Shown here: one piece after another, positions 728-55,817 of the stretch
How the letters are laid out: the number at the start of each line of letters is the position of its first letter
Position numbering within the stretch: position 1 is the stretch's first letter
Translations under genes and position numbers: made by a program
Origin: Candidatus Latescibacterota bacterium
Lineage (GTDB): Bacteria > Latescibacterota > UBA2968 > UBA8231
Assembly: GCA_965217585.1 (NCBI GenBank)
Contig: OZ244561.1
Coordinates: 2,592,001 to 2,656,000 of the forward strand
Direction: 5' to 3'
DNA: 64,000 nucleotides
The notes under the pieces: model-generated
The model's database searches: none
What the model saw: the letters and a program-made list of their open reading frames with translations, nothing else
What the model was told of the DNA's origin: nothing

Positions 728-1784
728 CTATCCGATGAGTACTTCTTCCTCGAGATTCTGACCGGCCAAAAAACCAGGCTGGAAGGGGGTGTTGATTCGC
801 TCGCGTTCTGCCACCTCATCCAGCGCCTGGAGCAACTCGGCCGGCTCTCCTTGCCATTCCGGTCGCCTGACCATCAAGCCCATAATGGCGGCGGCCACCG
901 GATGCCCTTCTAGCACCTCGGCATTTTGGGTCCGCCGGTTGCCTTCGTAAGCATTGAGAAAGTCCACTTCGTTGTAGCCCAGTGCTCGGGCAATGGCACA
1001 GCCCCAGCAAGCAAAGGATCGAACGATCCAGCAAATCCGCCCGGGTCGCCACGATATTGATGCCATTCAACCCCAAGCACCGTTGGAAGTGGTAAATCTG
1101 ATCCTCGTCGTCGGTGTAGAGAGCACGCTTGCTAAACCCCTCCCCTGTCACCGCTCGACAGAGCGCATCCGAAAGCCACAACGGCAACGTAGTTGCGCTA
1201 TCGAACAGTGGGGCCCAGTGATGGGAGAGTTTCTGCACCAGTCCGAAAGATGATCGGGCCAGGTGAGGGCCCCAGTCGTCGCGGTAATGGCAGGGATGCC
1301 GTAAGAAATACAGGCCAGCGCGTCGAGTTCACCCTCGACCAAGACCACGACATCATGTTCAAGCTGATCGATAGGAAAGAGTCGGGCCCCGCCGTAGCCT
1401 TGGGTCCAATGCAGCATTTTCGCGGTCCCCTGCCGCCGCTTTTCGATCGGGAGCCAACGACGGACGTCGCGATAGACGCCCTTGGCATCGGCGACCGGGA
1501 TGGGAACTCGATCCCCACCGCCCTGCTCATCCATCCCCAGACAGTAGCGATCTATAACCTCATCCGACAGCATCCGCTGTTCGCGCAGGTAGGCCGGTGC
1601 TCGGAGGTGAGGGCGGCATGCATCTGTTCGACCATCGACCCGGCGATGGGTGCCGGCTTGGATTGCGGGCAGGGCGGCCTAGACGGCAGCTGTCGTTTAG
1701 AAGTCCCGGAGCTAGATCAGTTCGCGCAAGCCAATAAATACTCTTTTTACTCTGCGCGGTAGAGTCCCTCCCAAAAATCCCCAC
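728..1784 (-). pseudogene. Fragmented phage/plasmid-type TOPRIM primase-helicase
   Basis: Overlapping frameshifted pieces: VVLVEGELDALAC..IPAIT (TOPRIM, 1148-1573), LSDALCRAVTGEGFSKRALYTD..LNGIN..DLLDRSI (helicase-like, 816-1238), and a C-terminal WQGEPAELL piece (728-1066). Confidence 0.7.
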
Positions 1785-8478: not shown

Positions 8479-8553
8479 TGGCAGCCCGGCGAGGACTCGA
8501 ACCTCGATAAACGGAACCAAAATCCGTTGTCCTACCAGTTGAACGACCGGGCT
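8479..8553 (-). tRNA. tRNA-Gln (UUG)
   Basis: AGCCCGG/CCGGGCT acceptor, ACGGA-TTTTGGT-TCCGT anticodon arm, CGAGG-TTCGAGT-CCTCG, GCCA end. Confidence 0.95.
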
Positions 8554-25676: not shown

Positions 25677-25757
25677 AGCCCTATCTGAGTGGACGCAGAC
25701 GTAGTTCCTACCAAGTAGTTGAAGTTGCTCAAGATACTGATCCGTGCGCTGGACACT

Positions 25758-26213
25758 ATGGCCCTACAACCCTTCCTTTGTCTCGCCCTTTTCATCCTTC
25801 ACGGCTGCCATAGCGAAGAAGTAGATCAACGCTTCTCCCATCCGGCCCAGACCTTCCAGACCTATAAGTACGCGCTAGAAGACAGCGACTTTGACCTGCT
25901 TTGGGAATGTTTCAATTCTTCGCAAATGGAGGGAGAAGATCGTCAGGGCTTTGTCGAACGATGGCGGCAAAAGACGCCAGCCGAGATAACGGCTCAACTG
26001 CGGCGAGAAATCGCCGAAGAGCGCATCATCAACGAGCGCATAGGTTACTTACTCTTCGATTCCTCTACGCTAGGCGATGAGCGCGCGTCTCCATTCTTTT
26101 ATTTTCTTCGCGATTCCAGTGGTTGGAAAATTACTTCCCACTTAGACAGCACCTTCCATCAAGAGTTAGAGCAAGCCATTGAGCGCGGCGAGTACAAATT
26201 ACCCGACTTCTAA
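25758..26213 (+). CDS. Hypothetical lipoprotein
   Basis: Lipobox LHGC; GWKI motif typical of NTF2-like folds. Confidence 0.65.
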   Translation: MALQPFLCLALFILHGCHSEEVDQRFSHPAQTFQTYKYALEDSDFDLLWECFNSSQMEGEDRQGFVERWRQKTPAEITAQLRREIAEERIINERIGYLLFDSSTLGDERASPFFYFLRDSSGWKITSHLDSTFHQELEQAIERGEYKLPDF

Positions 26214-26247
26214 CTCCTTCCCTTCCCTTCAGACATTAACTCTTTTA

Positions 26248-27819
26248 GAGCTGGTTTCAAAACTCTCATAGGGGTTACGGTTGAATATATCGGTGGGTTA
26301 GGCGTATTTTTCGATCATCGAAAAGGAGCGGTGCGATGGTCGAGTATACCGGTGAAGTCACCGAGGCCCAATGGGCCAAAATTGAGCCTTTGTTGCCCCA
26401 ACGACCCCGTTCGCCGAAAGGGGGCCGTACCCGCATCCCCGATCGCGCGGTGTTGGAAGGGATTTTATGGGTCTTATACCGTTTTGCTAATCGTATGTCC
26501 TAATGTTGGCTGTGGCCTCTCGCCACCAAGAGAATCGGGTGAGTTGTACCAATCGCTGGGTGTGTTCCCAGTAGGGTTGCAATAGCCTGGGTCAAGGCTT
26601 GGTCCAGCGCGTCGATGGTGGCAAAGAGCTGATTGGATAACGTGGCTCGCAAGGCTTCAAACCACCGCTCGACCGGATTCAACTCGGGACTATAGGGCGG
26701 CAAGAGCAGGGCTGTATATGCTCCGGCCATACCATGGTTTGGCTGAGATGACTGCCGGCCTGATCCATAACCAAGAGGAGGCAATCATCGGCATAGCTCC
26801 GACTCAATTCATCGATAAACCGTTGAAAACAGACGGTATCCAGATACGGCAGATATAGACAGCAACTGGCCTCGGTGTCCGGCTCGACGGCGGCATACCG
26901 CCACAACCATTCATAGCGATCCTGGACGATCCAAGGCGGACGATATCCACAGGGACCCCAGCGTCGTCGAGGCCCGCTTTTCAAGCCGAAACGCGCTTCA
27001 TCCAAGGCGAAGACTCGCAGGGGCGATCCCCCACCGACGTGGCCGTCTGGCGGAGGTGAGGACCGAAGTTATTTTTTAAACGCGCCCTGCGCTTTCGCCG
27101 AAGCGTGGGCGTGCTGACGGCGACCCGTTTTGAGCTTGATGCGATGGCGTTTACACCAGCGCGACAGCCCGCTGACGCCCTGATAGACGATACCAAACTG
27201 CTGCTGCAGGAAGCTACGGGCCTCTTCCAAGGTGGCAATCTGTCCGGCTTGCATCGCCGTTTCCAGTCCCTGGCGTGCTTCGGCGGTAATGGACTCACGG
27301 CGTCCGCCCCTACCTTGATCCGCTAGCAGACCGGCCAAGCCCTGCTGCTGATACCGCTGCCACCACCGACGTAAGGTCCGATCACTATGGCCCAGAAGGG
27401 GTGCCAATTGGGTCTGGCTGCGATAGCGACCACTTTTGAGCAAGACGCAGCATTTTAACGCGATCCGCTACGGCGGACGTGCGCAGGCGTCTCTCCTGGG
27501 CAAGGAGGGTATCTACGCTTTCTTGAATCCGATCAGGATAATGAATCCACATAAGTCGCTCCCAACAAAAAGGGGGGATTGCGATTGCGGTGCCGCGCAA
27601 CGGGCCGGGCCGACCGCGCAGTCGCGGACAGAGCCTTAGCGGCAGGACGGTCGAAAGCTGCGGCGATACAAACGGCGATACCGCATTGAGCGTACTATCG
27701 GGTGGCTGAGTAGCTTCCGCCGATTGGTCACTCGGTATGAGCGGAAAAGCTCGATGTTGCGCGCCTTTGTTCATCTCGCTTGTATGCTTATCACCGTAAG
27801 GCAGTTTTGAAACCAGCTT
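26248..27819 (+). mobile_element. Degenerate IS5-family element, interrupted by IS630 and internally deleted
   Basis: 16-bp inverted repeats AGCTGGTTTCAAAACT (26249-26264 and 27803-27818) flanked by TA. N-terminal MVEYTGEVTEAQWAKIEPLLP..ILWVL from 26336; C-terminal RYKRRYRIERTIGWL..RYERK ending at 27810. Confidence 0.88.
26477..27570 (-). mobile_element. IS630-family element, frameshifted, with one end lost
   Basis: HTH orfA from 27552 with TTTAAAAAA slippery site; DEARFG, DQAGSH and LPPYSPELNPVE catalytic motifs; inserted after a TA in the IS5 ORF. Confidence 0.88.
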
Positions 27820-27842
27820 TAGTCGATGGCTCCCCTAATCCA

Positions 27843-28819
27843 ACGTGAGTTCGGGTTAAGCGGCCTCTACTTGGCGTGGTCCATCGTTTTTTAGGGCTGG
27901 TTTTTTGGGTTGGTGGCAATAGGCAATTAATCCGCCGATGAGATGGACCATAAAATTGACCGGGCTGCGATGTCTGGTGTGTTCAATCTGGGCGATATTT
28001 TTGAGTTGATCGATGATGGTTTCGATCAGGGCTCGTTTGCGCAGCAGGAGCTTGTCCGCCATCGGCATGAGTTGATTTTTCATGTTGGATCGCAGCTTGG
28101 TAATCAACTGGAGGTCGAATAGCTCTTTCAATTGTTTGCCCAGCTTGTTGGAAAGGTATCCTCGGTCGGCAACCAGCTTGCCAAACAGGTCGCGCACCAA
28201 GCCGGGTACGGGTTTGCGATCATCGACGTTGGCTGGGGTTAGCGCCAAGTTGAGCAATTGACCTCGATTATTGAAGACCAGATGCAGCTTGAACCCGAAA
28301 AACCAACCGGTCGAACTTCGGCCCCATTGGGCTAGCCCCGCAAAGAGTCGGTGCTGGTGTCTACGATGGGGATTACATATGGCCAACGGCGTCGAGTCAA
28401 TAAACGAAATACCCGTGCAGGCTCCTTGGCATTGACGTAGATAGGCGCATAACGGAATAAGCGCCGAAGGGATTAACTCGACAAAGCGTCCATAACTGAC
28501 TAACCGGGGAAAAGCACCGCGTAGGTGCCTACAGACACGATGCTGGTAGAAGGCTTTGAACGTGCGGTACTGGGACTGGTGAAACCAAATAAACAGCGTC
28601 ATGATCTCGCTCAAACAGAGTTGACCAGCACGACGACGACGGTGACCGGTCGTTACTTGGTGGCGTATCCACTGGGCCTCAAAGGCTTGGCAAAAGTCAT
28701 CGACGTGGCAAAACAATTCGACTAAATTCATCGCGAGGGCTCCTCGATGGCTGAGCTTTATGGTCGGCATACCTAAGTTTAGCCAAAAAGGAGTCCCTCA
28801 CCTTAACCCGAACTCACGT
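27843..28819 (-). mobile_element. Intact IS982-family insertion sequence (977 bp)
   Basis: Perfect 18-bp inverted repeats ACGTGAGTTCGGGTTAAG; 7-bp target duplication TAATCCA at 27836-27842 and 28820-28826. Confidence 0.95.
27856..28731 (-). CDS. IS982-family transposase
   Basis: LFCHVDDF, FIDSTPL, GWFFGFKLH, ADRGY, RALIET, IEHTRHRS. Confidence 0.95.
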   Translation of the reverse strand: MNLVELFCHVDDFCQAFEAQWIRHQVTTGHRRRRAGQLCLSEIMTLFIWFHQSQYRTFKAFYQHRVCRHLRGAFPRLVSYGRFVELIPSALIPLCAYLRQCQGACTGISFIDSTPLAICNPHRRHQHRLFAGLAQWGRSSTGWFFGFKLHLVFNNRGQLLNLALTPANVDDRKPVPGLVRDLFGKLVADRGYLSNKLGKQLKELFDLQLITKLRSNMKNQLMPMADKLLLRKRALIETIIDQLKNIAQIEHTRHRSPVNFMVHLIGGLIAYCHQPKKPALKNDGPRQVEAA

Positions 28820-28844
28820 TAATCCACTAAGCGAATCTGCCTCC

Positions 28845-29378
28845 TCAATTAGGCGGCTTTAAATCCCAAGTCGCTATAATGCCCATTATCGTATTCCACT
28901 GTGTGTCGTTCATCGCCTCTACTAGAGAGAGTAGGCCCAACACATCGCGTTCCTTCTGTTTCTTGCGCGCCCGGGCAACTGCCTCTAACCACGATTGATC
29001 CCCGAGCAGAGCCAAGATTTCTGGATTGGAGAGTACCCCCAAGAGGGCTGGGTCCAAAGGCTCTTCGCTAGACAGGAGCTTATTGACCACCGGATCCGAC
29101 AGCGAGCGCATCATCTTGCCATAGAGCGCGCGTCCTTCCTCCGAGCTCGCCTTGGCCTCATAAGCAGCAAGCAACACCCTGTTAGAGTCGAGTTCCAATA
29201 CCTCGGCCAGCTTGATACATACTTCGTCGGAAGGAACCTTCTCCCCCTTTTCAATTTGTCCTATATAGGTTGCCCATACGCCCTTGGGCCTTCGCGCCGT
29301 CACAAGTTGCGTGGCCAAGCCCTGCTGGCTCAGGTGAGCTTGTAGCCGGGCCTCCTTGATCATTTCTGCAAACTGCAT
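28845..29378 (-). CDS. XRE-family HTH transcriptional regulator
   Basis: IKEARLQAHLSQQGLA..YIGQIEKGEKVPS..KLAEVLE; GAGGG RBS. Confidence 0.88.
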   Translation of the reverse strand: MQFAEMIKEARLQAHLSQQGLATQLVTARRPKGVWATYIGQIEKGEKVPSDEVCIKLAEVLELDSNRVLLAAYEAKASSEEGRALYGKMMRSLSDPVVNKLLSSEEPLDPALLGVLSNPEILALLGDQSWLEAVARARKKQKERDVLGLLSLVEAMNDTQWNTIMGIIATWDLKPPN

Positions 29379-29419
29379 TCGCGGTCCCTCTGAAATATTT
29401 TCAGCCACCTTCTTTATTA

Positions 29420-29448
29420 AATATACACACACACCAGTAAGTGTGCAA
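29420..29448 (-). promoter_or_regulatory. Sigma-70 promoter for the XRE gene, overlapped by an ACAC-N8-GTGT palindrome
   Basis: Minus strand TTGCAC-N17-TATATT; palindrome at 29429-29444. Confidence 0.6.
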
Positions 29449-29485
29449 GAGTGTATTGTCTTTTTCTAAACGCATGTTTTTCTGC

Positions 29486-29514
29486 TTGACAACACAATCT
29501 AGCGTGTGTATTTT
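29486..29514 (+). promoter_or_regulatory. Sigma-70 promoter for the ncRNA, with an ACAC-N8-GTGT palindrome in the spacer
   Basis: TTGACA-N17-TATTTT; palindrome at 29492-29507. Confidence 0.7.
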
Positions 29515-29524
29515 AATTTCTAAA

Positions 29525-29694
29525 TAGAGTGTGGTGGTCCTCTGGTGTGGCCAATGTCCTGATCCGCGAAGCTCGGATTTCCCTTTTCGGGTCGTTGAGA
29601 TCTTCAAAACTACCTCCCCACACCGCCTCGTTTGAGGATCTCACTTGCGTTTCAAGATCACACCATTTGGCCGCCACATGGCCGCCACACTCTA
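29525..29694 (+). ncRNA. Candidate structured ncRNA of about 170 nt (novel sRNA or divergent 6S RNA)
   Basis: Terminal stem TAGAGTGTGGTGGTC/GGCCGCCACACTCTA; 13-bp apical stem 29596-29608/29631-29643; bounded by a promoter and terminator; no credible ORF. Confidence 0.65.
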
Positions 29695-29701
29695 AATGAG
29701 T

Positions 29702-29733
29702 AAGCAGTCCATTTCTATATGGGCTGCTTTTTT
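29702..29733 (+). terminator. Rho-independent terminator
   Basis: AAGCAGTCCAT-loop-ATGGGCTGCTT followed by a T run. Confidence 0.85.
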
Positions 29734-29771
29734 ATTTTTATTTTTTATACCGGTTCCTTTCTTTATACGCC

Positions 29772-30887
29772 ATGCGTATCTGTATGGTCGCCTTCACCGA
29801 CCTGAATTTCGACTACCGCATCTACCGAGAGGCATCTTCGCTGCGCCGTGATGGGCACCAAGTCGTCATTGTCGCCTCCTCGTTCAATTCAGCCCCTCTT
29901 AAGGGATGGGACGATTTTGAAATCTATCCGATTCCGCTAGACCGAAGCCGATCATTGCGCCTTCTCTATCCTTTGTTTTGGCAACGAGCCTATCCACTGA
30001 TGGTCGAGACCCAGCCGGATGCCTATCACGCCCACGACCTAGACTCTCTCTGGCCAGCAGTGCGAGCTGCACAGCGACTAAATCGGCCTATCGTCTACGA
30101 CGCGCACGAATTTTGGACCGAACAATCCTCACTGGTCAACAGACCGCTGATACGGTCCTGCTGGAGTTTGCTGGAGCGGCGGCTGATACGTCGGGTAGAT
30201 CGCATCATAACCGTCAGTGGGTCTATCGCCCAATCACTCAAGGAGCGTTACCGCCTTGACGAAGTTGTTGTTCTGCGCAATCTGCCGCTATTCCGCCATA
30301 AGGTCCAAAGCAACCTGATACGCGAAACGCTGGACCTGCCCGATGAGCGCCCTATTGTGCTCTACCAAGGAGGATTCCTCACCGAAAATGGCTTGCGAGA
30401 GCAAATTGAGGCCGCCGCTGGGTTTGCCGCCGCTTTAGTTCTGATTGGGGATGGGCCTAGCGAACAGGCCCTGCGGAACCAAGTCCGCGCTGAGAGGCTA
30501 GAGGATCGGGTCTATTTTATTCCCCGGGTGCCCTTTCACCAACTTCACAATTATACTTGCTCCGCCGACTTGGGGCTGTGTCTGATCAAAGGCACGGGCA
30601 AGAGCTTCTACTACTCTCTGCCCAACAAGCTCTTCGAATATATGATGGCCGGGCTACCGGTCCTAGCCAGCAACTTTCCTGAAATGCAGCGCGTCGTCCG
30701 CGAAACGCGTACCGGAGCTACGGTCGATCCAACCGATATAGCTGCCATTCGAGAGCAGATCACCACTTTTTTGGACAATGCAGAGCAGCGAGAGGCATGT
30801 GCCAAGGCGAGTTTGCAGGCGGCACGGCGCTATAACTGGGAACGGGAAGCCGCTCAACTCACCCAGCTTTACACAGCCCTAGCATGA
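29772..30887 (+). CDS. GT4-family glycosyltransferase
   Basis: HAHD, YDAHE, SLPNKLFEYMMAGLPV. Confidence 0.93.
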   Translation: MRICMVAFTDLNFDYRIYREASSLRRDGHQVVIVASSFNSAPLKGWDDFEIYPIPLDRSRSLRLLYPLFWQRAYPLMVETQPDAYHAHDLDSLWPAVRAAQRLNRPIVYDAHEFWTEQSSLVNRPLIRSCWSLLERRLIRRVDRIITVSGSIAQSLKERYRLDEVVVLRNLPLFRHKVQSNLIRETLDLPDERPIVLYQGGFLTENGLREQIEAAAGFAAALVLIGDGPSEQALRNQVRAERLEDRVYFIPRVPFHQLHNYTCSADLGLCLIKGTGKSFYYSLPNKLFEYMMAGLPVLASNFPEMQRVVRETRTGATVDPTDIAAIREQITTFLDNAEQREACAKASLQAARRYNWEREAAQLTQLYTALA

Positions 30888-31855
30888 GTACCCCGCTGGC
30901 GCTCTGCGTCGTAATGCCTACCTATGGCGAGCCTGAGCGCCTCGAAGCAGCACTTAAGAGCCTATCCCAGCAAGATTATCCTCACGAGGCGATCCAAATC
31001 ATCGTGGTGGACGACGCCTCCCCCCACTTGGACGCCGAGCGACTGCATGCGGCGGTCGCGCCTTTACAATTGCGGCTGCTTCGCAACGAACAGAATCAGG
31101 GACGCGCCCGGGCGCGCAACGCAGCACTTCGGGTTGCCAGCGGCGATCTCGTCGTCTTTCTCGACAGCGACATGACCGTCGGCACGAGTTTTCTCCGCGC
31201 TCATGCCCAACGGCATCAAAACCATGCGGAAGCCGTTTTTATCGGCAACATCCGCTTTGCCAGTGAAATTCCCACTACGTCCCTGACCCGCTATCTCGAA
31301 GGGAGGGGGGTCCACAGGCTTGACGCGGATAAGCCCATACCTTTCAAGTGCTTCGTCACCGGCAACTCCTCGGTTCGCCGGTCGTCCCTGCTCCGCGTGG
31401 GTTTTTTCGACGAAGATCTCACTGCTTATGGCGGCGAAGACCTAGAATTGGGGTACCGCCTCCATTTGGCGGGTATCCCGCTTTACTATGCCCCTGAAGC
31501 CCTATCCTACCACTATCACTTGCGTTCATTGGAGCCGCTCTGCCGTCTTATGCAAACCTATGGCAGCAAGTCCATCCCCATCCTTTTACACAAGCATCCC
31601 GAACTTGACGCCGTACTCCGGTTGGACTTTATCTGGGCCTCTGGACTTTCTCTTCGGCGGCTCGCGCTCCAGCTAGCCCTGTTGTCTCCGATTCACTATC
31701 CAATCCGCTGGTTGACCCGCTGGCTTGTGAAAAGCTATGTCCCGGATCTGGTCTTTAGTTATTTATTTTGGTCCAGCCGCACTCGGGGTTATCTACAGGC
31801 GATTGCCCATTCAAAGGCGATTGCTAATCACCTAGTAGCCTCTGTAAAAGAATAA
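30884..31855 (+). CDS. GT2-family glycosyltransferase
   Basis: VVMPTY, VVDDAS, FLDSD, GGEDLELGYRL. Confidence 0.93.
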   Translation: MSTPLALCVVMPTYGEPERLEAALKSLSQQDYPHEAIQIIVVDDASPHLDAERLHAAVAPLQLRLLRNEQNQGRARARNAALRVASGDLVVFLDSDMTVGTSFLRAHAQRHQNHAEAVFIGNIRFASEIPTTSLTRYLEGRGVHRLDADKPIPFKCFVTGNSSVRRSSLLRVGFFDEDLTAYGGEDLELGYRLHLAGIPLYYAPEALSYHYHLRSLEPLCRLMQTYGSKSIPILLHKHPELDAVLRLDFIWASGLSLRRLALQLALLSPIHYPIRWLTRWLVKSYVPDLVFSYLFWSSRTRGYLQAIAHSKAIANHLVASVKE

Positions 31856-31897
31856 CGACTCAAACTACATACAAATGCCGGAGAACTCCCTAGCCTT

Positions 31898-32728
31898 ATG
31901 CATGCTCACTATCCTCGATTCTCCCAGATTCTCCGCGTAGCCCTACCTGCTCTCCTGCTGGCCCACTTCGTGGTTTGGCCCGTCGTCGGCCTCTTGTCCC
32001 TACATGCTGGTATTATTGCCGCCGAATGTACCATTCTGTGGTTTGTGGCCCTTTATATCCGCCGTCACCACCTAATCGCCGAAGATCTGCTGCTGTTCAA
32101 CGCCACGCCAGCTAGGACCCTGTTGCTGACAATCCCGGTGACTATTTGCTGTAGCCTCGTAGTCGCCGAATTCGACTTGTATCTGGCCTATCTGCTCGGC
32201 CGGATAGACCTATCTATGCCGCTGTCCTTTCAGAAGAACTTGCTGGAGATTCAGATTCTCCACGAACTGGCGGACGTCCCGAAGGGACTGGTAACACTGG
32301 TGCTAGCCCCTGTGTTTTGCGAAGAGCCTCTCTTCCGCGGGCTTGTACTCACTAGTCTTTACGCCCATTATGGACCGCGCTGGGCACTAGGCGGTTCGGC
32401 CCTGCTCTTCGCCATTTCGCACTTCAACCCTTGGCAACTGATCCCCCTCTTCCTCTTTGGACTCTTCCTCGGTGCTTTAGTCTATTGGACTCACAGCGTC
32501 TATCCTGCCATGCTCGCCCACGCGGTCAACAACTTGGCTTCGATAACTGGGATCAACTTGCGCACTTACTTAGGCATAGATGGCATAGGCCCCTCCCAGC
32601 ATCTCCCCATGCCCTTGGCCCTGCTCGCCGGCCTAATCCTGATTGGCGGCCTCCTGCTTCTCAGCCGCCAACCCGCCATTATGCCGCTGCTGACTAAGAG
32701 GGAATGCTCGCCGTCCGATTATACTTAA
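31898..32728 (+). CDS. CPBP/Abi-family intramembrane glutamic endopeptidase
   Basis: EEPLFRG, FAISH, HAVNN. Confidence 0.9.
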   Translation: MHAHYPRFSQILRVALPALLLAHFVVWPVVGLLSLHAGIIAAECTILWFVALYIRRHHLIAEDLLLFNATPARTLLLTIPVTICCSLVVAEFDLYLAYLLGRIDLSMPLSFQKNLLEIQILHELADVPKGLVTLVLAPVFCEEPLFRGLVLTSLYAHYGPRWALGGSALLFAISHFNPWQLIPLFLFGLFLGALVYWTHSVYPAMLAHAVNNLASITGINLRTYLGIDGIGPSQHLPMPLALLAGLILIGGLLLLSRQPAIMPLLTKRECSPSDYT

Positions 32729-46355: not shown

Positions 46356-47744
46356 ATGGCACTGAAAATACAAGATCCCCAAGAACTCTGGGCTCAATGT
46401 CTGCTCAATATCGAGCGTCAGGTTCGTCCCCAAAGTTTTGCTAATTGGTTTCTCCAGACTTCAGTAAACCACTTCGACGAAAACTCGTTGGTCATCCAAG
46501 TTCCCAGTGCATTTTCCGCCGCTTGGGTAGAGGAGCACTACTTGCAGATGATCCAATCAGTAGTACGGGAAGAGACAGCGCTGACTCCAAAGATCTCTTT
46601 TGTCGTTGCACAAGCACCCCAACCAGCTCTCGATCAAGTACTCCCTATCCCTGCTCCTGAAGAAGAATCCACAGAAGACGAACAAGAAGAAGTAGAAGCC
46701 GGTCCCGCTCAAATATCGCTCAACCAGCGCTATACCTTTGAAGAATTCATCATTGGCGATAGCAATCAAATTGCCCTTGCAACGGCCTTAGCCGTAGCTA
46801 ATGCCCCAGGTAAGACGGAATTTAATCCCCTCGTGATTTATGGCGGTGCCGGGCTAGGTAAAACACATCTGCTCCAAGCGATTGGGCATCACGCTCATAG
46901 CCTCAACCTAGCTAAGAAGGTCGTTTTCGTCACCTCGGAAAAATTTATGGGCGATTTCGTCCAAGCGCTCGCTCAAGGCCGCGATAAGACGAGTGAGTTT
47001 AAGAATTTCTACCGCAGCGCGGATATCCTCCTTGTCGACGACATCCAGTTTCTGCTCCACGGCGAACGGACCCAAAACGAATTTTTTCACACCTTTAATG
47101 CCTTGCACCAGTCCGAGAAGCAGATTGTCATGACCTGTGACAGTCCTCCTGGCCATCTTGATGGGTTAGAAGAAAGGCTGAAATCCCGCTTCATATGGGG
47201 TTTGGCCACCGCAATAAATCCGCCTGAGCTCGAGACTCGGATCGCCATCCTCCACAAAAAGGCCGAGCGCAACGGTATCCGGATTCCCAATGATGTGGCC
47301 GCTCTTTTGGGGAATTATATCCGATCGAATGTCCGCGAACTTGAAGGTACGTTGATTAGCTTGATGGCCTACTGCTCAATCCATAAGAAGGAACTCGACA
47401 TCGAGGCGGCCAAGCATATTCTAGATGAATTGGGGCCCAGCCCATCGGAACTGAGCATTGAGGCGATCCAGCAGCAGGTCGCTGACCACTTTAACCTGAC
47501 TCAGGAGCAACTCACTGGAAAAGGACGCAAGCAAGAAGTTGTAGCAGCACGGCACCTTGCTATGTTCCTAATCAAGCGTCTAATCGGCAGTCATTTCACT
47601 ACCATTGGCCTGCACTTCGGCAACCGCGATCACAGCTCAATCATCCACGCTGTACGCACTGTTGAGAAGAGGTGTAAAAACGATCCCGCCTTCGCCAGAC
47701 TAGCCGAGGATTTGTCCAATACCATCCGTCGGCAAAACCGCTAA
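46356..47744 (+). CDS. dnaA: Chromosomal replication initiator DnaA
   Basis: GGAGLGKTHL, DDIQF, SNVRELEG, RDHSSIIHA. Confidence 0.98.
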   Translation: MALKIQDPQELWAQCLLNIERQVRPQSFANWFLQTSVNHFDENSLVIQVPSAFSAAWVEEHYLQMIQSVVREETALTPKISFVVAQAPQPALDQVLPIPAPEEESTEDEQEEVEAGPAQISLNQRYTFEEFIIGDSNQIALATALAVANAPGKTEFNPLVIYGGAGLGKTHLLQAIGHHAHSLNLAKKVVFVTSEKFMGDFVQALAQGRDKTSEFKNFYRSADILLVDDIQFLLHGERTQNEFFHTFNALHQSEKQIVMTCDSPPGHLDGLEERLKSRFIWGLATAINPPELETRIAILHKKAERNGIRIPNDVAALLGNYIRSNVRELEGTLISLMAYCSIHKKELDIEAAKHILDELGPSPSELSIEAIQQQVADHFNLTQEQLTGKGRKQEVVAARHLAMFLIKRLIGSHFTTIGLHFGNRDHSSIIHAVRTVEKRCKNDPAFARLAEDLSNTIRRQNR

Positions 47745-48299
47745 CCCTAAGCCCAACCCCCATCTCTTAGACCTCTTTGTCTGTATTTTTCAGAACCATA
47801 GTGCCTATTTGGCAGTGGAAAACTATTAACACCTATCCCCGTCTAAGTATTGATTCAGTGTGGATAAGTCTATAAAAAAAAGAAAACCGTCATTTTTAAC
47901 TTTCCGACTGTGAAAAACTCAAGTTTTCCACTCCACAATCCACAGACGAACTCCTGCCGCTAAATCATCCCTCTTATTTATAAACATCTTATTAACAATA
48001 TGTTTTGTTGTTTAGGGATAAATCCCTAAGACAGTTATCCACATATCCACAGCATAACTAGAACTTCAAAAGTAAAAGAACACAAAAAAGTGTAGCCTTA
48101 TTAAAAAGATAGATGTGGATTGTCCCATCTCAAACACACACACCTTTTTGTTTTTTTACACACACCTACCCATATGTTCCCTTGTATTAAAAATGAGACA
48201 CTATAAATATAATGGAACTTGACATAAGTAGGCATGAAAGCTAAGTTTATTTAAGTCTTTGAAGGACGATATTCTCAGAAGGATAATCCGAGAAGCTTT
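47745..48299. other. Replication origin oriC (dnaA-dnaN intergenic region)
   Basis: Very AT-rich; DnaA boxes TGTGGATAA (47859), TTATCCACA (48035), ATATCCACA (48043) plus weaker boxes. Confidence 0.85.
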
Positions 48300-49463
48300 A
48301 TGAAGTTACGAGTAAATCGCAATGAGTTATGGCGGGGCATTGATACTGTATTAGAAGCCGTGTCTTCAAAGCCCTCCCTGCCGGTGTTGGCTAATATCTT
48401 GCTTGAAGCCGATGAGAAAACCCTATCCCTATCTGCGACGGATTTAGATTTGTCCATCCGGACTCAAGTCCCTGCTATAGTAGAAGAAAACGGGAGGACG
48501 ACTGTTTCGGCGCGCAAGCTGGCAGAAATCACCCGAGAATGGCCTGAGGCGGAACTGAGTATTGAGGTGCAAGACGATCGACTCAAGCTCTCAGGGCGGC
48601 TCGGGGACGCCGAGAGCAGCGAAGGAGCGTATAGCCTGTCGGGAATAGAGGCTGAAGAGTTTCCCAGTATGCCGACAGCACTTGACGGCGTAAGCCTGAG
48701 TTTGGGGGAGGACGAAGCCGAGACCCATGTTCTAGTAGGCATGATCAACAAGACGGCCTTTGCCGTCTCCGGGGATGATACGCGACCAGTGTTCAACGGG
48801 GTGCTCTGGCGCATCGATGCCCAGGGAATGGAGATGGTGGCTACCGACGGGTCGCGCTTAGCCTGTTGCAGACTAGCCATAGATTTGCAGGATCAGGTAC
48901 AGGCCGATCAAGAGACCGCGGTCATTGTTCCCCCTCAAGCGCTGATCCAGATCGTCAAATTGCTGGGTAGCCATAAAGGGCCAGTCAAGGTCACGCTAGG
49001 CGAGACGCAGATACTGTTTGATATAGGACATACGCATTTGCTGTCGCGTCTGATCGAGGGACCTTATGTCAACTATGCCCAAGTCATTCCTCAGAACAAC
49101 CAAAAAGAACTAAGAATAGCCAGCGAAGATCTTCTGCCGGCCGTACGCCGGGTATCCATCCTATCTAGTTCCTATACGCGTCAAGTGCGTTTTAAGCTAA
49201 ATAGTGGCCAGGTGGAGCTATCGGCCGCCAGCCCCGAAATCGGTGGTGAAGCGAGGGAGGTCGTGCCCGCCCAATATGCCTCTGAAGAGATAGAGGTTGG
49301 CTACAACGCCCAGTATTTGATCGAGATACTGCGCAGAATGGACGCGTCCGAGGTCCGTTTCGAGCTCAATGACCACGTCACAGCAGCTCTGTTGCGACCG
49401 ATGGAACAAAAGGAAGGTGAGGACTACTTCTGCTTGCTAATGCCCTTGCGGCCGACAGGATGA
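48300..49463 (+). CDS. dnaN: DNA polymerase III beta clamp
   Basis: SATDLDL, VATDGSRL, SRLIEGPY, LLMPLR. Confidence 0.97.
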   Translation: MKLRVNRNELWRGIDTVLEAVSSKPSLPVLANILLEADEKTLSLSATDLDLSIRTQVPAIVEENGRTTVSARKLAEITREWPEAELSIEVQDDRLKLSGRLGDAESSEGAYSLSGIEAEEFPSMPTALDGVSLSLGEDEAETHVLVGMINKTAFAVSGDDTRPVFNGVLWRIDAQGMEMVATDGSRLACCRLAIDLQDQVQADQETAVIVPPQALIQIVKLLGSHKGPVKVTLGETQILFDIGHTHLLSRLIEGPYVNYAQVIPQNNQKELRIASEDLLPAVRRVSILSSSYTRQVRFKLNSGQVELSAASPEIGGEAREVVPAQYASEEIEVGYNAQYLIEILRRMDASEVRFELNDHVTAALLRPMEQKEGEDYFCLLMPLRPTG

Positions 49464-55470: not shown

Positions 55471-55557
55471 GGAGGGTTAGACCTAATTGGTAAGGCAGCG
55501 GTCTTGAAAACCGCCGGGCTCACGCCCTTGAGGGTTCGAGTCCCTCACCCTCCGCCA
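55471..55557 (+). tRNA. tRNA-Ser (UGA)
   Basis: GCGGT-CTTGAAA-ACCGC anticodon arm, long variable arm, GCCA end. Confidence 0.95.
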
Positions 55558-55635
55558 GTTTACCATTTGATACCGCCACAATCCCATCCTTTTTAGCGGT
55601 GGGAGCACGTCAAAAGTTTATTTTGCAATGGTCGC

Positions 55636-55729
<94 letters not shown>

Positions 55730-55741
55730 ATCTGCGTTAGT

Positions 55742-55817
55742 TGCCCTCTAGCACAATTGGGAGTGCGCCTGACTCTGGATCAGGAGGTTCTAGGTTCGAG
55801 CCCTAGGAGGGCAGCCA
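55742..55817 (+). tRNA. tRNA-Gln (CUG)
   Basis: TGCCCTC/GAGGGCA acceptor, CCTGA-CTCTGGA-TCAGG anticodon arm. Confidence 0.95.

Follow-up and report, generated by a model that had tools for sequence, protein, structure and literature searches.

The 64,000-nucleotide stretch of DNA from Candidatus Latescibacterota considered here (contig OZ244561.1, positions 2,592,001 to 2,656,000; henceforth the window) carries the gene of an XRE-family regulator and, transcribed divergently from it, the gene of a structured non-coding RNA of approximately 215 nucleotides (nt), with a copy of the same palindrome in the spacer of each of the two promoters. The regulator gene occupies 28845-29378 on the minus strand and the RNA 29521-29740 on the plus strand; the 5' end of the RNA was inferred from its -10 box and the 3' end from its terminator. 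An earlier note on this DNA had described the two units as lying back to back, and this arrangement is borne out. It is very probable that the structured RNA is real, and just as probable that operators for the XRE protein are present in both promoters. Sequence comparison across genomes indicates that regulator and structured RNA form a module that is conserved in Candidatus Latescibacterota. With regard to the locus as a whole, an XRE dimer would repress both promoters, the main product would be a trans-acting RNA displaying C-rich loops, and a downstream operon encoding two glycosyltransferases (GT4 and GT2) and a CAAX protease would be expressed by read-through; this complete reading is given about an even chance of being correct.

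Distribution of the RNA

Relatives of the locus were collected by scanning genome contigs with a profile of the XRE protein (alignment A1), which returned 62 loci with XRE identities ranging from 94% to 32%; almost all bear the label Candidatus Latescibacterota, the few others being named Gemmatimonadota or otherwise. An alignment of the intergenic region (A2) comprises 32 sequences, those of the window and 31 loci. The RNA-bearing loci outside this alignment are nine that are near-identical to included ones (L003, L004, L009, L011, L012, L017, L018, L022, and L035), together with L038, L027, which is cut by a contig end, and L046, which was found later.

A blastn search with the RNA unit matched 42 of the 62 loci, in every case upstream of the XRE gene and divergent from it. 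A covariance model of the RNA core (R1; 160 positions, 37 pairs) finds one copy in the window (163 bits) and one copy in each of 43 loci, all divergent from the XRE gene; 41 of these are full-length at 123-186 bits, that of L027 is cut by the contig end, and that of L046, a homologue with 72% G+C, scores 53.8 bits. No second copy was detected by R1 in the window or in any of the 62 loci. The question raised in the earlier note, whether XRE orthologs retain the same divergent neighbor, can thus be answered for most of the set: 43 of the 62 loci have the same RNA, and in nine others the same promoter and operator precede a variant structured RNA.

Structure of the RNA

The plus strand of 29520-29740 folds with an energy of -92 kcal/mol (z = -8.78), a stability attained by none of 200 shuffled sequences; the opposite strand gives z = -4.97. 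Analysis of the RNA part of the 32 aligned sequences with RNAalifold yielded 45 pairs, 16 of which show at least one compensatory double change. Standard pairs fill 98.0% of the cells of this consensus, compared to 38.0-45.1% when the 3' partners are slid by one to three columns, and 41 cells carry double changes against a shuffle mean of 8.9; none of the five measures applied was reached in any of 500 shuffles.

The architecture is that of a three-way junction, closed by a helix (P1) and bearing two hairpins, followed by a linker and a terminator. The 5' strand of P1, GAGUGUGGUGGUC, lies at 29527-29539 (plus strand) and pairs with 29669-29679 or with a duplicated copy at approximately 29681-29695; the helix has 11 pairs, with 99.7% of cells paired and two pairs showing compensatory change. 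These two registers are provided by an 11-nt tandem duplication, GGCCGCCACAT / GGCCGCCACAC, at 29669-29690 in the 3' strand of P1, which is common only to the window and L001 (94% XRE identity). Within P1, helix P2 pairs 29565-29569 with 29645-29649 (five pairs, three compensatory) and encloses the hairpins P3 and P4. P3, at 29571-29592, has six pairs (97.9% of cells paired) and a C-rich loop, AUUUCCCUUU, which reads GAUUCCCCUUU in most of the distant relatives. P4, at 29596-29643, has a 12-bp stem and a loop of approximately 24 nt; all of its 12 pairs are formed in 100% of cells, and five show compensatory change. A 24-nt block of P4, ACCUCCCCACACCGCCUCGUUUGA (29612-29635), is invariant or nearly so in the 32 sequences, its last four bases being the 3' strand of the stem. 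The C-rich loops remain unpaired in the consensus, as UUUCCCUU or UUCCCCUU in P3 and as CCUCCCCACACCGCC in P4. Between P1 and the terminator runs an A/U-rich linker that varies in both sequence and length. The strong terminator noted earlier at the end of the plus unit was recovered at 29702-29740 as a stem (29702-29729) followed by a T run; the scan gives a stem of 11 pairs, and the alignment supports eight pairs, five of them compensatory.

The RNA matches no Rfam family. Searches of Rfam at the gathering score returned only tRNAs and tRNA-Sec for the whole window, and at E values up to 10 the segment 29350-29800 gave weak terminator-like matches, the best with E = 0.19; nothing relevant was returned for four other loci. 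A relationship to 6S RNA, suggested by the long closing helix, was considered and set aside: there is no Rfam 6S match, and in place of the 6S rod with its large central bubble the consensus has a three-way junction bearing two hairpins.

Promoters and operators

A consensus scan for sigma-70-type sites finds exactly two promoter-like sites between 28700 and 29900, one for each gene. The promoter of the RNA, TTGACA-N17-TATTTT at 29486-29514 (plus strand), is that proposed in the earlier note and matches the consensus in 10 of 12 positions; its CTTGACA is invariant in all 32 aligned sequences, and the T, A, T, and T positions of the -10 box vary little or not at all. The promoter of the XRE gene lies at 29420-29448 on the minus strand, with a -10 box TATATT at 29425-29420 and a -35 box, TGCACA or TTGCAC, at 29448-29442. 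Here the promoter and its -10 box were proposed correctly, as was its presence on the minus strand, but the scan prefers the register TGCACA-N16-TATATT (29447-29420) over the TTGCAC-N17 first suggested and scores it 9 of 12, so that by sequence it is a fair rather than a strong promoter. A block of the form AAATATAC.CACAC...GTGTGCAAG at this promoter is kept in the close loci of A2.

The palindrome ACAC-N8-GTGT has just two matches in the window, at the noted positions 29429-29444 and 29492-29507, one in the spacer of each promoter; 0.39 matches would be expected, and two or more occurred anywhere in 5 of 100 shuffled windows. The first belongs to a longer predicted operator, CACAC-N8-GTGTG at 29428-29445 (O_X), which is kept across loci while its spacer letters vary. 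The second is the predicted operator of the RNA promoter (O_R, 29492-29507), situated between the -35 and -10 boxes at a distance of 63 bp from O_X. Both spacers are of optimal length, and the spacer between -35 and -10 is the usual place for a repressor. The CAC/GTG half-site columns of O_R are invariant in 32 of 32 sequences, while the eight bases between them differ by clade (AATCTAGC, AAAGTAGC, AGCCCAGT, ACATCAGT, and others); fixed half-sites around a changing spacer are the pattern expected of a protein-binding site.

The conservation of the palindromes among relatives, on which the earlier proposal depended, is likewise evident. Within 330 nt upstream of the XRE gene, 56 of the 62 loci carry ACAC-N4-8-GTGT. 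Overlapping matches number 132 in the 20,375 nt of upstream sequence and five in the other 485,784 nt, i.e., 6.5 per kb as opposed to 0.010 per kb, an enrichment of approximately 630-fold. The two operators are 63 bp apart in the window and 62-63 bp apart in 24 close loci, and where a third site exists, each site lies 62-68 bp from the next. A spacing of 62-68 bp corresponds to about six helical turns, and hence bound dimers would share one face of the DNA.

The third site is carried by an insertion of approximately 90 nt between the conserved promoter and P1 and lies 62-68 bp from the second; it was seen in L023, L025, L026, L028-L031, L033, L034, L036, L037, L044, L056, and L039. Several of these loci show flanking -35-like and -10-like hexamers, an example being the TATAAT found 7 nt before P1 in L036. 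By eye, the insertion resembles a promoter-operator unit duplicated in tandem; transcription would then begin at two sites.

Elsewhere in the window, the only other match of this type is an ACAC-N6-GTGT at 48080, which falls between dnaA and dnaN, as do CACAC-rich runs at 48134-48175. These are probably chance occurrences in an A/T-rich region.

The XRE protein

The open reading frame (ORF) of the regulator spans 28845-29432 on the minus strand; translation probably starts at the ATG at 29378, yielding a protein of 177 amino acids with an N-terminal helix-turn-helix (HTH) domain and a C-terminal helical domain that holds the predicted dimer interface. The Pfam models HTH_3 (PF01381; 34.1 bits against a cut-off of 23, E = 2.8e-8) and HTH_31 (29.8 bits against a cut-off of 27) both match. 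Relatives of the protein number 123 at E values of 0.001 or less, and among the 120 listed the identities extend down to 39%, with most proteins close to 177 residues in length. In the 21 sequences of alignment A1, the recognition-helix residues T37, Y38, G40, Q41, E43, K44, and G45 are invariant.

An AlphaFold2 (AF2) model has predicted local distance difference test (pLDDT) values above 90 for residues 1-70 and of 57-75, i.e., moderate, for the C-terminal helices. According to this model and to Foldseek, the HTH domain has the five-helix DNA-binding fold of lambda repressor. Its matches in the PDB include P22 c2 repressor (3jxb; TM-score 0.86-0.88, root-mean-square deviation 1.0 Å), 434 repressor, SinR, controller proteins (C-proteins), DdrO, and HigA; all of these matches have E values above 1e-3 and align about 68 of the 177 residues. 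They are confined to the HTH domain, and Foldseek returned no look-alike in the PDB for the C-terminal domain.

Prediction of a homodimer gave a score of 0.63, compared to 0.01 for the best control, with the runs agreeing in at least 91% of contacts and a partner pLDDT of at least 82; in the calibration, 20 of 30 solved homodimers passed the mark applied, as did 1 of 23 single chains, counts that are rough here since an alignment of our own was used. The modelled interface is formed by the C-terminal domain, roughly residues 77-176. The model supports the formation of a dimer by the XRE protein. HTH repressor dimers are common among solved structures, and a part of this result may reflect likeness to them. 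With respect to binding of the operators as a dimer, both the enrichment of palindromes upstream of the XRE gene and the homodimer score are predictive in nature.

Genomic setting

Comparison of the neighborhoods by tblastn with the neighboring proteins revealed a conserved order: orf164, XRE, the RNA, GT4, GT2, the CAAX protease, and a convergent sucD. Among the 62 loci, 41 have GT4 (54% identity or more), with a further weak match in L044, 40 have GT2, 36 the CAAX protease, and 39 orf164. By this comparison the XRE-RNA locus is part of the core chromosome, as had been supposed. Neither a collection of phages (50,697 records) nor one of plasmids gave a blastn match to the intergenic region, and on these grounds an origin of the XRE-RNA unit from a mobile element was rejected.

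The further statement that no phage genes lie nearby is correct as far as phages are concerned, but two insertion sequence (IS) elements, at 26500-28770, lie directly 3' of the XRE gene. They occupy the interval 26214-28844 between orf164 (25719-26213) and the XRE stop codon. One is IS630-like with a split transposase, represented by an HTH_33 ORF at 27069-27443 and DDE_3 fragments at 26500-27005; the other encodes a 304-residue DDE_Tnp_1_3 transposase at 27856-28770. In relatives, orf164 ends within tens of bases of the XRE stop, while in the window approximately 2.6 kb of IS sequence intervenes; since the pair is absent from this position in relatives, the elements represent insertions in this genome.

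Two loci are informative as to which partners travel together. In L056 (4013-4863 and 2402-2950), the XRE gene is broken to an 80-residue fragment beside a transposase-like ORF, and the RNA, itself intact (123 bits), is separated from GT4 by a second IS fragment. In L044, the RNA and the XRE gene are kept, and the downstream genes encode a 567-residue protein and another GT4-family enzyme. To judge from the set of loci, the RNA is tied more tightly to the XRE gene than to the genes downstream.

Loci with a variant RNA

The 19 of 62 loci without a match to R1 were read directly. Nine of them (L040, L041, L042, L045, L047, L048, L050, L057, and L059) constitute a second variant, B, as distinct from the form in the window (variant A). 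They possess the same promoter and operator, CTTGACA-ACACACACTTGAGAGCGT-ATATTTT, divergent from the XRE gene, and the pattern CTTGACA-operator-TATATTTT of the RNA promoter was found in all nine. The RNA of variant B is approximately 250 nt in length and its fold is unlike that of the window RNA; RNAalifold on the nine sequences gives 48 pairs, 21 of which show compensatory change. Its first hairpin covaries and has an invariant loop, CUCCCCAC, a motif that is also present within the P4 loop of the window. A palindrome of the form CACACA...TGTGTG follows approximately 62 bp past the first operator, then two more hairpins, and finally a long terminal hairpin that displays GAUUCCCCUUUCUCCCC and leads into a T-rich run. 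The motif GAUUCCCCUUU is common to the P3 loop of variant A and the variant-B RNAs. On this comparison of sequences, the two variants share promoter, operator, and two C-rich motifs, but not the scaffold.

The gene downstream of variant B encodes a coiled-coil-like protein of 118-146 residues with no Pfam match above cut-off, and not a glycosyltransferase. Only a remnant of this gene is left in L041 and nothing of it in L048, and in both the RNA and the XRE gene are kept. With the other ten loci, palindromes of the same type are present upstream of the XRE gene in L049, L058, L060, and L061; none was seen in L043, L051, L052, L054, L055, and L062.

Proposed regulation and alternatives

The computed elements described above, namely the gene, its promoters and conserved palindromes, the covarying fold, the linkage of RNA to XRE, and the predicted dimer, lend themselves to the following proposal, in which we infer the binding, the repression, the signal, the action in trans, and the read-through. 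An XRE dimer would bind the CACAC-N8-GTGTG palindromes in the spacers of the XRE promoter and the divergent RNA promoter and would shut both, thereby imposing negative autoregulation and repression of the RNA. Some signal would release the protein, and the freed RNA promoter would then yield the RNA of approximately 215 nt showing the C-rich loops UUCCCCUU and CCUCCCCACACCGCC. The RNA would act mainly in trans, its loops pairing with G-rich, Shine-Dalgarno-like stretches of mRNA. Polymerases passing the terminator would express GT4-GT2-CAAX, and envelope glycosylation would come under the same switch.

Action in trans is favored by several features. A strong promoter serves the RNA itself, a strong terminator with a U tail ends it, the linker before that terminator varies, and no antiterminator pairing was found. 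The two C-rich loop motifs are kept in variant B despite another scaffold and another downstream gene, and the RNA and XRE are kept where the downstream gene differs or is lost (L044, L041, L048).

Other observations weigh against the proposal. No RNA target was found in the 64-kb window and approximately 8.5 kb per locus, a search with little power for a genome of about 6.5 Mb. Pairing of the loops with the start regions of the XRE gene and GT4 is no better than with shuffled sequences (mean z of +0.34, -0.14, +0.63, and +0.65; 32 and 31 sequences), and the best other pairing sites in the window and the loci are inside or antisense to coding sequence. A co-oriented gene follows at approximately 35-50 nt past the terminator in 40 of the 43 RNA-bearing loci, and invariant loops and junctions with covarying stems are also typical of a riboswitch aptamer or another cis-acting leader. 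In addition, R1 does not detect variant B (best E = 0.27, in L041), the promoter and short motifs are all that variants A and B have in common, and their RNAs may not be homologous. Finally, a palindrome in the promoter of the XRE gene itself was not seen by eye in the variant-B loci, and thus autoregulation may not be universal.

Two candidate sets of targets were dropped. A scan of the P4 loop by duplex energy against both strands of the window gave 1121-1170 (minus strand) as the best site other than the RNA itself (-32.8 kcal/mol), which lies inside overlapping ORFs and not at a start. A search of the window and the 62 loci for complements of the loop core with up to two mismatches produced, besides the RNA gene, recurrent matches antisense to CAAX and GT2 coding sequence.

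The GT4, GT2, and CAAX-protease genes, identified by Pfam, extend over 29772-32728 on the plus strand and occur in the same order in 36-41 loci. They probably form an operon transcribed by read-through and possibly constitute a second output of the switch. The sequence from the 3' part of the RNA to the ATG of GT4 was scanned by the criteria used for the two promoters, in the window and in 40 loci (L044, L056, and L027, which have no adjacent GT4, were left out); no sigma-70-like promoter was found in the window or in any of the 40. With no recognizable promoter of its own, GT4 is likely to be expressed by read-through. The claim that the output of the locus is an RNA rather than a protein is therefore upheld insofar as the RNA is structured and non-coding, but it may be incomplete, given that GT4-GT2-CAAX begins some 35-50 nt farther on with no promoter of its own detected. 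GT4 starts with ATG-N9-ATG (29772-29786), which is preceded by no Shine-Dalgarno sequence, and its leader is nearly free of G in all loci examined; this suggests that its initiation is independent of a Shine-Dalgarno interaction.

This same operon underlies the first alternative, that the RNA is purely a cis-acting leader of GT4-GT2-CAAX, either an attenuator responsive to a ligand or protein or a device for processive antitermination, with XRE serving only to gate the promoter. The position of GT4 directly past the terminator, the lack of a promoter-like site and of a Shine-Dalgarno sequence before it, and an aptamer-like combination of covarying stems with invariant loops and junctions all fit such a leader; moreover, the downstream genes of L044, though different, include a GT4-family enzyme, and most variant-B loci also have a co-oriented gene within 50-200 nt. 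However, when the terminator arms were paired against the RNA core in the 32 sequences, the mean z was -0.13 (left arm) and -0.79 (right arm), no better than for shuffled arms, and the variable linker between P1 and the terminator leaves no switching platform visible. The C-rich motifs outlast a switch in the family of the downstream gene, from glycosyltransferases in variant A to a coiled-coil-like protein in variant B, L041 and L048 have kept the RNA with that gene reduced or missing, and no Rfam riboswitch or leader family matches. A purely cis-acting role is accordingly judged unlikely, albeit a contender to be taken seriously.

A second alternative assigns the RNA a protein or an abundant RNA as its partner: it could be a sponge or decoy for a C-rich-RNA-binding protein, mimic the 3' end of 16S rRNA, or act on XRE itself. 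The nearly invariant 24-nt block exceeds the needs of most seeds, and it is maintained although XRE identity across these loci ranges only from 45 to 94%; no mRNA target turned up nearby; and the P4 loop contains CCUCC, the core of the anti-Shine-Dalgarno sequence. Against this, the conserved neighborhood encodes no candidate partner, L034 and L056 lack the CCUCC core and read CCUUCCCAC instead, and an HTH protein that reads palindromes in B-form DNA would not be expected to bind single-stranded C-rich loops. Such a role is held to be improbable.

Similarly improbable, and if anything slightly more so, is the bolder idea that the invariant CCUCCCCACACCGCC loop and the second C-rich loop, rather than being an ordinary seed, mimic the anti-Shine-Dalgarno end of 16S rRNA or else form the sensing core of a new class of leader. 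Were it true, the RNA would amount to a repressor-gated device spanning the phylum, one that either traps mRNAs with Shine-Dalgarno sequences on a global scale or permits polymerase to run past the strong terminator into the envelope-glycosylation genes; in the latter event, a single transcript would serve both as a trans regulator and as a cis gate.

That the unit encodes a small protein (a 56-residue frame at 29529-29699) and owes its conservation to coding is hardly credible and was rejected: a stop-free frame of 37-68 codons does cross the region in 32 of 32 sequences, and a GTG stands at the start of P1, but between close relatives the frame is thrown out of register by 1- and 2-nt indels (L015, L021, L013, L019, L016), the longest ORF of 5 of the 32 sequences runs through the invariant block in a different frame, a second frame lacks a start codon in 27 of 32, the substitutions are compensatory for helices, and C-rich sequence is poor in stops by composition. 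The unit has no ribosome-binding site and no conserved start codon, in agreement with the earlier statement that it holds no ORF led by one.

Other features of the window

The intergenic region between dnaA (46356-47744) and dnaN (48300-49463), at 47745-48299 and followed beyond dnaN by recF, contains boxes of the TTATCCACA type and looks, from its sequence, like the replication origin. A tRNA-Sec gene is present at 2102-2196 on the minus strand (70.1 bits), which makes the use of selenocysteine by the organism probable. Other tRNA genes form a cluster of three at 55471-55814, with a single one at 8482-8553.

Comparison with known systems

Divergent pairs of a transcription factor and a small RNA (sRNA) are represented in enterobacteria by OxyR-OxyS, GcvA-GcvB, and SgrR-SgrS. 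The locus described here shares with them the back-to-back genes of regulator and RNA, the predicted regulator sites (here palindromes) in the shared region, and an RNA with its own intrinsic terminator. It differs in that the regulator is an HTH protein of the XRE/cI type with a new C-terminal domain, and not of the LysR or SgrR type, and in that the placement of the sites within promoter spacers points to repression and not to activation. In addition, the RNA is larger and more structured, a promoter-less operon follows its terminator, and the host belongs to an uncultured phylum.

The 6C sRNA of Actinobacteria has been described as binding its mRNA targets directly through G-C pairing by C-rich hairpin loops, with no need for a chaperone (PMC6486639), and RoxS/RsaE and IsrR of Firmicutes have been presented as riboregulators with C-rich loops (PMC5419742, PMC8216469, PMC9410917). 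Like these, the RNA of the window is a stably folded molecule with at least two unpaired C-rich motifs in hairpin loops. Unlike them, it is about twice as long, has a closing helix and a three-way junction, and displays a nearly invariant 24-nt block in one loop; none of these families (6C, RsaE/RoxS, IsrR) gave an Rfam match at E values up to 10 in 29350-29800 or at the gathering score in the window. If the proposed trans action is correct, regulation by C-rich-loop RNAs would extend from Firmicutes and Actinobacteria to the FCB superphylum, in which we take Latescibacterota to be placed.

Phages lambda, 434, and P22 provide the classical divergent promoter switches of the cI/Cro type. Common to these and the present locus are a repressor with an XRE-fold HTH, a predicted dimer, palindromes overlapping two back-to-back promoters, and a likely autoregulation. 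The locus has two operators 63 bp apart, in contrast to three adjacent ones, and its opposing transcript is a structured RNA. The likening of the locus to a cI/Cro switch in the earlier note is an analogy only: a second repressor is absent, and nothing points to two stable states. A bistable switch was rejected, as the divergent unit is non-coding and the intergenic region contains no second HTH ORF; a phage context was rejected as well, the order orf164-XRE-RNA-GT4-GT2-CAAX-sucD being chromosomal and conserved and without phage or plasmid matches. If the proposal holds, the locus would provide a rare example of a chromosomal RNA gene with an XRE/cI-type repressor of its own.

Riboswitches and leaders such as the EAR element, which directs processive antitermination in the polysaccharide (eps) operons of Bacillus, resemble the locus in their layout: glycosyltransferase genes are directly preceded by a conserved, structured RNA, whose stems covary and whose loops are invariant, and by its terminator. 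They differ from it in that no competing antiterminator pairing and no Rfam match were found here and that, in variant B, the same motifs stand upstream of unrelated genes. An expression platform of mutually exclusive terminator and antiterminator was rejected on account of the z values of the terminator arms and the variable linker.

A search of open-access papers and preprints for regulatory RNAs of Latescibacterota, or for structured or divergent RNAs linked to XRE genes, returned nothing relevant. For a phylum with no cultured model, the locus offers a new RNA family with strong support from covariation and a regulator with a defined operator motif and phasing. It also presents a testable circuit, consisting of a repressor, two operators, an RNA, and possibly an envelope-glycosylation operon expressed by read-through, the parts of which could be rebuilt in a laboratory host, and its two structural variants, with shared loop motifs on different scaffolds, amount to a natural test of which parts of the RNA are important. 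Set beside the systems above, the RNA family and the regulator subfamily are new; the principle of their design is familiar.

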